A stretch of DNA of 64,000 bases from Parcubacteria group bacterium Greene0416_36 (GTDB lineage Bacteria > Patescibacteriota > Patescibacteriia > VMEV01), in the NCBI GenBank assembly GCA_007375725.1, contig VMEV01000002.1, positions 45,992-109,991 on the forward strand, given 5' to 3'. The first letter of the stretch is position 1; the number at the start of each line of letters is the position of its first letter. The position numbers and the translations under genes were made by a program. Shown one piece after another: positions 12,330 through 14,873 of this stretch. The notes beneath the pieces are model-generated. The model had not been told where the DNA came from. It worked only from the letters and a program-made list of their open reading frames with translations, and did not search any database.

Positions 12330-14873
12330 ATGCAGAAAATTTCATGCCAGAGTTATCCGGACTTTGATAATCATGAATGCGTGGTCAAGATTGAGGATTC
12401 CTCCGTGGGACTTCTCGCTTTTATCGCGATTCATAATAGCGCCTTGGGTCCAGCCACCGGTGGAACGCGTATGTTTGATTACGGGACGGAAGAAGGGGCT
12501 GTCGCCGACGTGCTCCGCCTTTCCCGTGCGATGACCTACAAGTGCGCGGCTGCGGACGTGCCACATGGGGGAGGGAAGGCTGTGATCATGGGGGATCCTA
12601 GAAAAATGAAGACTCCGGCGCTTCTGCGCGCTTTTGCCAAAGCGGTCAATGAGCTGGAAGGAGCTTTTTCAACTGGAACCGATGCGGGGATTACAAAGGA
12701 AGATGTAGAAATCATGAGAGAAGTATCCGGTTTTATCAATGGGAAACATGGGGGAGACCCTGCTCCTTATGCGGCTCTGGGCACTTTTTATGGAATCCAA
12801 AGCGCATTACTGGAATGTTTCGGAAACGCGGATTGTCATGGGAGGGTCGTGGCCATCAAGGGAATAGGAAAAGTGGGGAGATCTTTGATCAGCCTCTTGG
12901 ACAAAGCAGGCGCGAAAATCATCGCGGCCGACATCGATGATGCCGCGGTCGCCTGGGTTAAGTCTCATTTTCCGTCGGTTCGATTGGCCAGTCCGTGGGA
13001 GATCCACCGCCAGAGGGCAGACGTGTTTTGTCCCTGTGCCATGGGGGGGGAGATCAGCCGCAAGGCCGCAATGGAAATTACGGCACGGATTGTCTGTGGC
13101 GCGGCCAATAACCAACTAAGGGATCCGGCTTGCGAGCAGATTTTATTTGGCCGAGGTATTTTGTATGTGCCTGATTTTGTCGCCAATGCTGGGGGGCTGA
13201 TCCATGTGGTCGACGAACTGGCTCCTCTGGGTTATGACGCGGACCGGGTTCGAGAGAAAATCAATAATATCAGATCCTTACTGGGGAATATTTTTGAGCT
13301 TGCAAGGAGGGATCTGCGGCTTCCCAACCAGGTGGCCGAGGAGATTGCAGAAAAAAAATTCAATAAAAAATATCCGGCAAGTCCTTTGGAGATTCACGAG
13401 AATGCAAAAACCCTCCTAGATCTTTATCTTTCCAAGGAAGACCCTTTTTGGGAAAGTTTGAGGGAGAAGAGAACCCTGGAACTGTTCCACGCGGCTGCCC
13501 GTTTGGTGCCCGCTTACTCTGATTTTCTCAAAAAACATGAAGTGAATCCTTCTAAAATCCGGACGTGGTCGGATTTCCAAAAAAATGTTCCCGTGATGGA
13601 TAAGAAAAATTATCTCCGGGCCTATCCCCTAGAGGCGATGACTTGGGGAGGAACCCTCAAAGGGAAGCCCCTTAATTTTGCCGCGACTTCAGGCTCCACT
13701 GGCGTTCCCTTCTATTTTCCCAGAAGCCCGCAGCTGGAGTGGCAGTGTTCGCTGACCCTCGAACTTTTTCTCCGGAGCAGTTCATTTGGCACCCAGGGTC
13801 CAATCGCAGTGATCAATGCTTTTTCTATGGGCGTGTGGATGGGCGGAATGATCACGTTCAAAGCGTTTGACATGATCAATCAGCGAGGCCATTGCCCGGT
13901 TTCGGTTCTATGTACCGGCAACAGCAAGCCGGCTATTTTTGCCGCTCTCCGCGAGTGGGCGCCGCACTTCAGCGAGGTCATTCTCATTGGTTATCCGCCC
14001 TTTATCAAAGATGTGATCGACGAGGGGCCGTCGGAGGGAATTGACTGGTCGAAGATCCGTTTGAGGCTGCATTTCGCGACCGAATCTTTTTCTGAAGAGT
14101 TTCGCGATTATATGGCCCAAAAAGCCTCTCTCAAAAATCCGTATTTGGACACCATGAATATTTATGGTTCCGCGGATATCGGCGCCATGGGTTTTGAGAC
14201 TCCCCAAGCCATACTTTTTAGGAAGTTGATTGTATCTAGCTCCGAGGCCGCTCAGGCTCTCTTCTCGGGCAAGACGGCAACGCTTGCGCAGTTCAATCCT
14301 TATTTCATCAATTTTGAAGCTCCGGATAAAAATGTTCTTCTCAGCGGCGACAACACCATTCCGCTTCTTCGGTACTCGCTGGGAGATAAGGGGGGGGTTT
14401 TGTCTTATAAGGATATGACTGCTCATATGGATACCCATGTTCCGCTGTGGAGGGAAGAAATGTCAAAAGCGGGGATCGTCCAGAGATATTCATTGCCGTT
14501 TGTCTATGTTTATGAGCGGGGAGACCTGTCCGTGAGTTTGTATGGAGCCAAGGTCTATCCGGAAACGATCCGAAAAGTTTTTCTCGAGGGCAGGTTCAGT
14601 GATTTCTATACTGGCAAGTTCACCTTGATTGTTCGCTATGACCAGGAGCAGAACCAGCATCTGGAGGTTCATGTGGAACAAAAAAAAGATGCTCCTCGGT
14701 CAGATTCTAAAATGCTCGCCGATGCGATTGTCGCCCTTTTGGTGCATGAAAATGCCGAGTACCGAAGTCATCATGATCAAATTCCGGACAAGGTTTTGCC
14801 GGACGTGATTCTATGGCCATTTGGGGATCCTCTGCATTTCGGGCCCAATCCCAAACAGCAGTGGATCAAATGA
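12330..14873 (+). CDS. fusion: Glu/Leu/Phe/Val-type amino-acid dehydrogenase (N) + PaaK/CapK/F390-synthetase-like adenylate-forming domain (C)
   Basis: GGTRMFDYG...[23 protein letters not shown] and Rossmann [11 protein letters not shown]; C-half [12 protein letters not shown] adenylation motif. Confidence 0.6.
   Translation: [847 protein letters not shown]

Follow-up and report, generated by a model that had tools for sequence, protein, structure and literature searches.

An amino acid dehydrogenase–ligase fusion within a conserved Patescibacteria operon that resembles oxazolone pathways

We analyzed a 64-kb stretch of contig VMEV01000002.1 from the ultra-small groundwater bacterium Parcubacteria group bacterium Greene0416_36 (here, the window), in which one open reading frame (ORF) on the forward strand, positions 12330 to 14873, encodes an 847-amino-acid (847-aa) protein that combines an ELFV-type amino acid dehydrogenase with a PaaK-like adenylate-forming ligase. 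The fusion of these two adjacent operon genes is genuine and specific to one lineage, and the operon is a more interesting object than the fusion alone. Across Patescibacteria, the operon seems to represent a variant of a pathway based on a ThiF-like enzyme and a flavin-dependent oxidase (FDO), in which another enzyme forms the amide and a dehydrogenase is optional. We put the chances at about even that the operon makes an N-acyl-amino-acid (oxazolone-type) small molecule, with the fusion joining the dehydrogenase to a coenzyme A (CoA)-independent N-acylating ligase. A first-pass annotation of this DNA singled out the fusion and overlooked the operon context that explains it, namely, that the two halves are normally encoded by separate neighboring genes.

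According to the ORF list and its translation, the reading frame begins with ATG and has zero internal stops. All of the motifs quoted in the first-pass annotation were found in it (GGTRMFDYG at aa 44 to 52, GIGKVGRS at aa 178 to 185, and longer stretches at aa 68 to 90 and aa 453 to 464). The same 847-aa protein is encoded on contig VMHD01000001.1 of an NCBI metagenome-assembled genome (MAG) and in Logan assemblies made separately from runs SRR8863435 and SRR8863439; nine contigs carrying it were read, and in the Logan assemblies its gene has the same neighbors. The exact database match is "hypothetical protein G01um101418_179" from the MAG "Parcubacteria group bacterium Gr01-1014_18." Because the product is identical in three independent assemblies, a single-assembly artifact is excluded. 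The annotation had treated the two halves as a single polypeptide, and no frameshift or stop between them was seen. Its remark that the architecture was unfamiliar was apt, as only two of 1.84 billion representative proteins searched exhaustively with HMMER contained both halves, the window fusion and a second protein, P0138. Relatives of the ligase were also collected at one genome per species (GTDB), which yielded 393, and all locus counts given below derive from the best 80 of these. ELFV dehydrogenase and ligase occupied one ORF in none of these species-level related loci (0/80). Searches of the literature, family models, and domain databases found no paper or entry that assigns a function to the fusion architecture.

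Nearly all of the 80 loci are labeled Patescibacteria (Liptonbacteria, Wolfebacteria, Harrisonbacteria, Saccharibacteria, and others); the other labels are a few unclassified MAGs and one Gammaproteobacteria. The conserved operon order is [ELFV]–PaaK-like–ThiF-like–nitroreductase-type FDO–seven-transmembrane (7TM) histidine kinase. A ThiF-like gene is present in 77/79 loci and lies directly downstream of the ligase in 61. Among the loci with at least 4.5 kb of downstream sequence (n = 56), 49 have the FDO and 50 the 7TM kinase; the ThiF-like enzyme, FDO, and kinase occur together in 46. An ELFV dehydrogenase is encoded directly upstream of the ligase in 34/73 loci. On a Liptonbacteria contig, for example, separate ELFV (6895 to 7965) and PaaK-like (8001 to 9515) genes are followed by the ThiF gene. 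The closest relatives of the window ligase (loci L042, L083, and L035) also have separate genes, in the order N>E>P>T or N>T>E>P (nitroreductase-type, N; ELFV, E; PaaK-like, P; ThiF-like, T). All-against-all clustering of the 80 loci gave only receivers, housekeeping genes, and antisense shadow ORFs. Stand-alone receiver domains, in one or two copies and mostly upstream, were found in 38/80 loci and are the sole further enriched family; no GNAT, conserved small ORF, or ThiS/MoaD-like protein was enriched. Two loci carry more than one ligase. In L061 (Patescibacteria), two tandem ligase–ThiF-like pairs (2805 to 5407 and 8001 to 10244) suggest paralogous pathways, and in L058, inverted ligase copies with identical scores (985 to 2454 on the forward strand and 2977 to 4446 on the reverse strand) may be an assembly artifact.

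The same enzymes are also joined in sister fusions. P0138 is a 1242-aa ELFV–PaaK-like–ThiF-like triple fusion, present in two MAGs, that aligns with the window fusion at 34% identity in one continuous alignment through the junction. Its operon follows the order of the window (nitroreductase-type gene, fusion, alpha/beta hydrolase, and 7TM kinase). Other fusions from the same search were PaaK-like–ThiF-like (P0153), ThiF-like–PaaK-like (P0234), and ELFV–FDO (P0184). Because the four enzymes are tied together both by gene order and by five distinct covalent architectures, there is strong evidence, at the level of sequence, that the dehydrogenase, ligase, ThiF-like enzyme, and FDO act in one pathway. 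The existence of ligase–ThiF-like fusions further suggests that the product of the ligase is the substrate of the ThiF-like enzyme. Read as Rosetta stones, the fusions would bring four enzymes of unassigned role into one pathway and link it to the recently discovered oxazolone and N-acyl-dehydroamino-acid chemistry of Mycobacterium tuberculosis, Pseudoalteromonas, and Planctomycetota.

In the window, the FDO, fusion, ThiF-like, hydrolase, and kinase genes and a terminal palindrome form a tight, co-directional block (Table 1). The ThiF-like protein scored 335.5 bits (E 6e-100) against positions 4 to 350 of the NCBIfam Rv1355c-family model, compared with ≤81 bits for other ThiF/MoeB models; this value falls below the whole-protein cutoff of 476 bits, which presumes both domains in one chain. 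In a comparison with a Mycolicibacterium plasmid "Rv1355c family protein," its identity to the ThiF half was 36% over 318 aa, and the match covers the family-specific N- and C-terminal extensions that flank the Rossmann core. The ThiF-like protein keeps ADFDRLSLSNLNR (aa 164 to 176) and a catalytic Asp232 in VVDEIDN; its nucleotide-site motifs are kept, and D232 aligns with MoeB Asp130. Of the residues reported for TrzS (D217, R540, and Q651), the Asp was placed via this MoeB alignment, and D232 is probably the equivalent of TrzS D217.

The FDO scored 179.6 bits against the NCBIfam Acg-family FMN oxidoreductase model (cutoff, 199) and 61.9 bits against positions 374 to 646 of the Rv1355c-family model. 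Its best PDB match was MsAcg (2YMV), and a comparison with a Mycolicibacterium Rv1355c-family protein gave 21% identity to the FDO half (E 0.002). The longest ORF for this gene uses a GTG start at 11207 and encodes 370 aa. The alpha/beta hydrolase gene also stands between the ThiF-like and kinase genes in L029 and after the triple fusion in L086 and L087. This hydrolase is an accessory member of the operon variant, possibly with a role in oxazolone ring opening or as an esterase. The palindrome lies directly 3' of the kinase gene, occurs once in the window, and is likely the operon terminator. Separately, a second HisKA_7TM histidine kinase gene (544 aa; 22752 to 24386, forward strand) is located 3.5 kb downstream of the operon kinase.

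Table 1. Operon features in the 64-kb window, in order of position
Feature	Position	Strand	Details and basis
Nitroreductase-superfamily flavin-dependent oxidase (FDO, Acg-like)	11291..12319	+	342 aa annotated; ends 10 nt before fusion
ELFV dehydrogenase half of fusion, complete Leu/Phe/Trp-type	12330..13367	+	aa 1-346; Pfam, NCBIfam, and PDB matches
Inter-domain linker, predicted disordered	13368..13397	+	aa 347-356; pLDDT <50 in full-length AlphaFold2 model
PaaK-fold (ANL superfamily) adenylate-forming ligase half of fusion	13398..14873	+	aa 357-847 plus stop; alignments, PDB profile, AlphaFold2/Foldseek
ThiF-like adenylating enzyme, Rv1355c/TrzS type, putative N-acyl-amino-acid cyclase	14916..16100	+	394 aa; NCBIfam
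Alpha/beta-fold hydrolase	16168..17040	+	290 aa; Pfam Abhydrolase_1, 93.9 bits
HisKA_7TM histidine kinase (7TM, GAF, HisKA, HATPase), last operon gene	17062..19230	+	722 aa; Pfam
Perfect palindrome, 20-bp stem (GGCATTTGTAGGGACGTTGCA / complement) with T-rich tail	19288..19334	+	terminator scan

Several characterized systems contain counterparts of these proteins. TrzS (= Rv1355c), TyzB/TyzC, and OxzB are ThiF-like cyclase and FDO pairs that convert N-acyl-Trp, -Tyr, or -Phe to unsaturated oxazolones; in OxzAB, TyzACB, and TrzAS, the N-acyl amino acid is made by an adjacent GNAT/LuxI-like acyl-CoA-dependent synthase (PMC12856293, PMC10404671, bioRxiv 10.1101/2020.06.11.147165). This set of three enzymes is also behind the N-acyl-dehydrotyrosines of Planctomycetota and of other phyla (PMC12479983). 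The named systems are OxzAB of Pseudoalteromonas rubra, TyzACB (Rv2336-Rv2338c) and TrzAS (Rv1356c/Rv1355c) of M. tuberculosis, and NasY/ThiF/nitroreductase of Planctomycetota. They share with the window operon an Rv1355c-type ThiF-like cyclase, a nitroreductase-superfamily FDO, a third enzyme per operon, and parts that are prone to fusion. They build on aromatic amino acids, a point on which the window operon may also resemble them.

In contrast to these systems, the Patescibacteria operon lacks the GNAT-type synthase (OxzA/TyzA/TrzA/NasY) and has a PaaK-like ligase in that place. The window operon encodes an Rv1355c-type ThiF-like cyclase with an intact ATP-site Asp and an adjacent FDO but no adjacent GNAT synthase; no GNAT/LuxI-like N-acyl-amino-acid synthase domain was found among the window genes across positions 35 to 31505. 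The Patescibacteria operons also differ in having a dehydrogenase in approximately half of the loci, an attached 7TM kinase (50/56) and often receivers, ThiF-like and FDO proteins encoded by separate genes, an Acg-like FDO, and Patescibacteria as the host phylum. No literature linking Patescibacteria to oxazolone or ThiF/FDO chemistry was found in the searchable library. One ThiF-like gene outside the phylum is of separate interest. On a Streptomyces sp. NBC_01426 plasmid (L088, 5977 to 7751), a stand-alone ThiF-like gene encodes a protein with 34% identity to that of the window over 93% of its length; it overlaps a GNAT-family gene by 4 nt (translationally coupled), and no nitroreductase-type gene is nearby. 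This ThiF/GNAT pair may make saturated oxazolones.

The first-pass assignment of the N-terminal half of the fusion to the ELFV dehydrogenases was borne out. Both Pfam domains scored above their cutoffs (ELFV_dehydrog_N [PF02812], aa 28 to 130, 86.5 bits versus 25.3; ELFV_dehydrog [PF00208], 64.6 bits versus 23.4). In a PDB search, the half aligned end to end with a solved leucine dehydrogenase (LeuDH 6ACF; 261 bits, aa 12 to 343 on residues 9 to 342 of 367), followed by tryptophan dehydrogenase (TrpDH 5B37; 241 bits), phenylalanine dehydrogenase (PheDH 1C1D; 178 bits), and glutamate dehydrogenase (GluDH; ≤83 bits). By sequence similarity, it is therefore a member of the hydrophobic-substrate branch (LeuDH/PheDH/TrpDH) and not a GluDH. 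The best NCBIfam match, over aa 15 to 346, was Trp_DH_ScyB (NF035922) at 276.5 bits; because this is below the 600-bit equivalog cutoff, identity with the ScyB tryptophan dehydrogenase equivalog is ruled out. ScyB is nevertheless an example of such a dehydrogenase feeding a secondary-metabolite pathway.

Full-length homology, the catalytic residues, the Rossmann motif (GIGKVG, aa 178 to 183), and a hydrophobic pocket are shared with LeuDH (6ACF/1LEH), PheDH (1C1D), and TrpDH (ScyB, 5B37). LeuDH K68, K80, and D115 correspond to K71, K83 (in GGGK), and D118 of the fusion, and their equivalents are invariant in 39/39 cluster-linked dehydrogenases. The side-chain pocket of the dehydrogenase half consists of T43, G116, L290, and V293, which are non-polar or small. 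The half differs from the solved enzymes by L40 to T, A113 to G, V291 to L, and the covalently attached ligase. The Gly at LeuDH position 113 is present in 39/39 cluster-linked dehydrogenases, as in PheDH, where it enlarges the pocket (PheDH G124 mutagenesis), and position 40 carries a smaller residue. Because of these two positions, the side-chain pocket is predicted to be larger, which points to bulky or aromatic side chains like those of the known oxazolone pathways. As a side observation, homologs of the dehydrogenase half occur in other fusions, including a methyltransferase–ELFV protein (P0015, 639 aa) and an ELFV–class I aminoacyl-tRNA-synthetase-like protein (P0024, 971 aa) that one source labels leucine dehydrogenase/methionyl-tRNA synthetase. 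Other homologs (among P0016 to P0022) have 100- to 150-aa N-terminal extensions of uncharacterized nature.

For the C-terminal half, placed by the first-pass annotation in the PaaK/CapK/F390-synthetase branch, the PaaK fold stood and orthology to PaaK did not. An AlphaFold2 model of this half (predicted local distance difference test [pLDDT], 90.8; predicted template modeling score [pTM], 0.88) matched PaaK1 best in Foldseek (E 6e-23, TM 0.69/about 0.79). Further matches were BT_0428, 2-hydroxyisobutyryl-CoA ligase (HCL), NatL2 (6SIX/6SIY), and ClxA, with the GH3 and McbA amide synthetases as weaker matches; identity was 10 to 15% across all structural matches. A PDB profile search with the family of this half returned PaaK (2Y4O, E 7e-11). 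In contrast, the PaaK equivalog model TIGR02155 scored the fusion at 28.4 bits over aa 387 to 617 only (cutoff, 646.3). At this score, and with 14 to 15% identity to PaaK structures, true PaaK membership is ruled out, as is membership of the F390-synthetase, CapK, and GH3 families, for which scores were far under the cutoffs.

The motifs expected of an adenylate-forming enzyme are in place (P-loop, aa 453 to 465; IYGSADIG, aa 611 to 618; RYSLGDKGG, aa 681 to 689; C-terminal Lys842 in KQQW), and P-loop TSGSTG and K842 are invariant across 73 homologs. Sequence and model together indicate that the half is an intact adenylate-forming enzyme with a PaaK fold. It shares with PaaK1/2 of Burkholderia cenocepacia (TIGR02155) the two-domain ANL fold, the P-loop, YG..D, RY..GD, and the C-terminal catalytic lysine; it differs in being ~60 to 70 residues longer, in having an N-terminal helical extension, and in lying outside a paa catabolic cluster. 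From its first to its last residue, it aligns with stand-alone proteins of ~500 aa at 36 to 53% identity. This ligase family has >1,200 members in a 5.8-billion-protein collection. Among the 120 best family matches listed, none carried a precomputed Pfam domain, and the few named proteins were called "phenylacetate--CoA ligase family protein."

A second comparison concerns NatL2, BomJ, and ClxA, which are PaaK-family ligases of benzoxazole biosynthesis, and the GH3 acyl-acid amido synthetases. All of them form an adenylate, and the acyl group then goes to the O or N of a second small molecule and not to CoA. The likeness of the window ligase to NatL2 is at the fold level; no specific sequence kinship to NatL2, BomJ, ClxA, or GH3 was seen (13 to 15% identity), and the substrates differ. 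NatL2 and ClxA couple two small molecules without CoA (PMC7204872, PMC12519233). No sequence signature splits CoA-using from CoA-independent members such as NatL2 (PMC7204872).

The junction between the halves is simple. In unfused relatives, the dehydrogenase ends in "...ADxLAExIFxxxxKK*" and the ligase starts ~20 residues ahead of a conserved FW; in the fusion, the dehydrogenase tail joins the ligase head directly, with no Met. The ligase ORF of several relatives shares its frame with the dehydrogenase stop, and for this reason the removal of a single stop codon would suffice to create the fusion. A full-length AlphaFold2 model, built from an alignment of ~350-aa ELFV proteins plus P0138, folds both halves well (pLDDT, 91.8), with a pTM of 0.69 versus 0.88 for the C-terminal half alone. 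The first-pass annotation had raised the question of whether the two active sites face each other; the halves are individually well folded, but the model gives no confident packing between them. As a minor observation, an A8 homopolymer (13351 to 13358) lies three codons upstream of the domain junction. After a hypothetical −1 slip at this run, the dehydrogenase frame would close 22 codons later, with TTG at 13380 as a possible ligase start; there is no evidence of such a slip.

The structural and genomic facts are solid, and from them we infer the following chemistry. In step 1, the ELFV half would form the L-amino acid from a 2-oxo acid with a bulky hydrophobic or aromatic side chain, drawing on NAD(P)H and ammonia; less likely, the dehydrogenase would run in reverse and supply the 2-oxo acid. 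In step 2, the PaaK-like half would use ATP to turn a carboxylic acid into its adenylate and acylate the amino group directly, giving an N-acyl amino acid with no CoA intermediate and replacing the GNAT-type synthase (OxzA/TyzA/TrzA) of known pathways. A CoA-free step of this kind has precedent, since NatL2 and ClxA bypass CoA and the GH3 acyl-acid amido synthetases make N-acyl amino acids. In step 3, the ThiF-like enzyme would adenylate the carboxylate of the N-acyl amino acid and cyclize it to a 5(4H)-oxazolone, to which the flavin oxidase would add an alpha,beta double bond in step 4. In step 5, the alpha/beta hydrolase of the window variant may open the ring to yield an N-acyl-dehydroamino acid. 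The fusion would tether step 1 to step 2.

Several observations weigh against this proposal. The dehydrogenase is missing in approximately half of the related operons and is thus accessory, not essential. By sequence, the FDO is nearer to the uncharacterized Acg proteins than to the corresponding halves of TrzS-type proteins. The ligase half keeps all adenylation motifs of true CoA ligases, and its sequence is compatible with CoA use. Both the PaaK-like family and the operon are known from sequence and predicted structure alone. The full-length model predicts no confident contact between the halves (low pTM, disordered linker), leaving channeling without structural support. Finally, known FDO desaturations need O2, and many Patescibacteria inhabit anoxic groundwater. 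Even so, the fusions, the absent partner genes, and the similarity to TrzS-type proteins are better explained by the proposal that the operon makes an oxazolone-type molecule by way of a CoA-independent ligase than by any rival.

We consider it unlikely that the ligase half is a conventional acyl- or aryl-CoA ligase. Under this alternative, an unlinked acyltransferase would form the amide, or dehydrogenase and ligase would serve amino acid catabolism (amino acid to 2-oxo acid to acid to CoA ester). Although the nearest solved structures are the CoA ligases PaaK1, BT_0428, and 2-hydroxyisobutyryl-CoA ligase, the low equivalog score (28 bits versus 646) and low identity set the ligase half apart from PaaK. 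The intact P-loop and C-terminal catalytic Lys and the "phenylacetate--CoA ligase family protein" labels of homologs are consistent with CoA ligation, but the conserved genes of the 80 loci include no acyltransferase, 2-oxoacid oxidoreductase, or decarboxylase. CoA-dependent metabolism is generally sparse in Patescibacteria, which also counts against this alternative. Moreover, the ligase is fused to the ThiF-like protein in three independent architectures, which suggests that the ligase product is used by the ThiF-like enzyme directly.

We give still less credence, and regard as very unlikely, a role in protein or peptide modification. Here, the ThiF-like protein would be an E1-like activator of a protein C terminus, on a receiver protein or a ribosomal precursor, with the other enzymes tailoring the product as in microcin C, pantocin, or thiazole/oxazole-modified microcin (TOMM) biosynthesis. 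The substrate of most characterized ThiF-like enzymes is indeed a protein, a peptide, or a tRNA (review, PMC12596934), and the best PDB sequence match of the window protein is TcdA, though at 28 bits; the protein is far nearer to Rv1355c/TrzS (335 bits, 36% identity) than to protein-activating E1 enzymes (≤81 bits). The one or two stand-alone receiver genes upstream in 38/80 loci would be candidate substrates; however, no receiver-domain protein was found in the 64-kb window (phmmer, then a hidden Markov model built from 54 receivers). Receivers aside, the 80 loci contain no conserved small ORF and no ThiS/MoaD-like protein.

Least probable by far is that the fusion stems from faulty sequencing or assembly, or from a stop codon lost recently with inactivating effect, with two proteins really expressed: the A8 run immediately before the junction, the shared frame that would let a single substitution fuse the genes, and the metagenomic origin of all sequence would allow it, but an error at the A8 run is rejected by the concordant NCBI MAG and two Logan assemblies and by the same ELFV–ligase junction in the P0138 lineage (34% identity, two MAGs), all catalytic residues are kept in both halves, and frame-preserving stop loss is how real fusions arise.

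If the proposed CoA-independent N-acyl-amino-acid synthetase is correct, the ligase would represent a new biocatalyst class for amide bonds, and a function would be assigned to a family of >1,200 proteins. The fused dehydrogenase–ligase would be a compact two-step enzyme that is directly testable. Patescibacteria have tiny genomes and almost no biosynthetic capacity; because this capacity is so small, a conserved kinase-linked pathway likely matters for their lifestyle. A more speculative extension, which we hold to be quite unlikely, is that the operon is a self-contained signaling module widespread in Patescibacteria. The CoA-independent ligase, ThiF-like cyclase, and flavin oxidase, joined by the dehydrogenase in approximately half of the lineages, would make a reactive N-acyl-dehydroamino-acid or oxazolone signal, which the co-transcribed 7TM kinase would sense and relay via stand-alone receivers. 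If true, these reduced, episymbiotic bacteria would have their first proposed chemical signal of an autoinducer-like or host-sensing kind, and N-acyl amino acids would have a new enzymatic route.

Elsewhere in the window, five ORFs of 190 to 373 aa (8632 to 9639, 20292 to 20864, 21410 to 22531, 46166 to 48152, and 57386 to 58393) have no Pfam match, and the first three also have no NCBIfam match; none of the five is conserved beside the operon in other lineages. The remaining window genes are housekeeping genes, encoding polynucleotide phosphorylase (PNPase), RNase J, pyruvate kinase, aspartyl-tRNA synthetase (AspRS), serine hydroxymethyltransferase (SHMT), FtsW, and a class I aminoacyl-tRNA synthetase of the isoleucyl/valyl (IleRS/ValRS) type. 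Positions 55238 to 57343 encode a 701-aa chain that joins GT2, GT4, and GT1-type glycosyltransferase domains.

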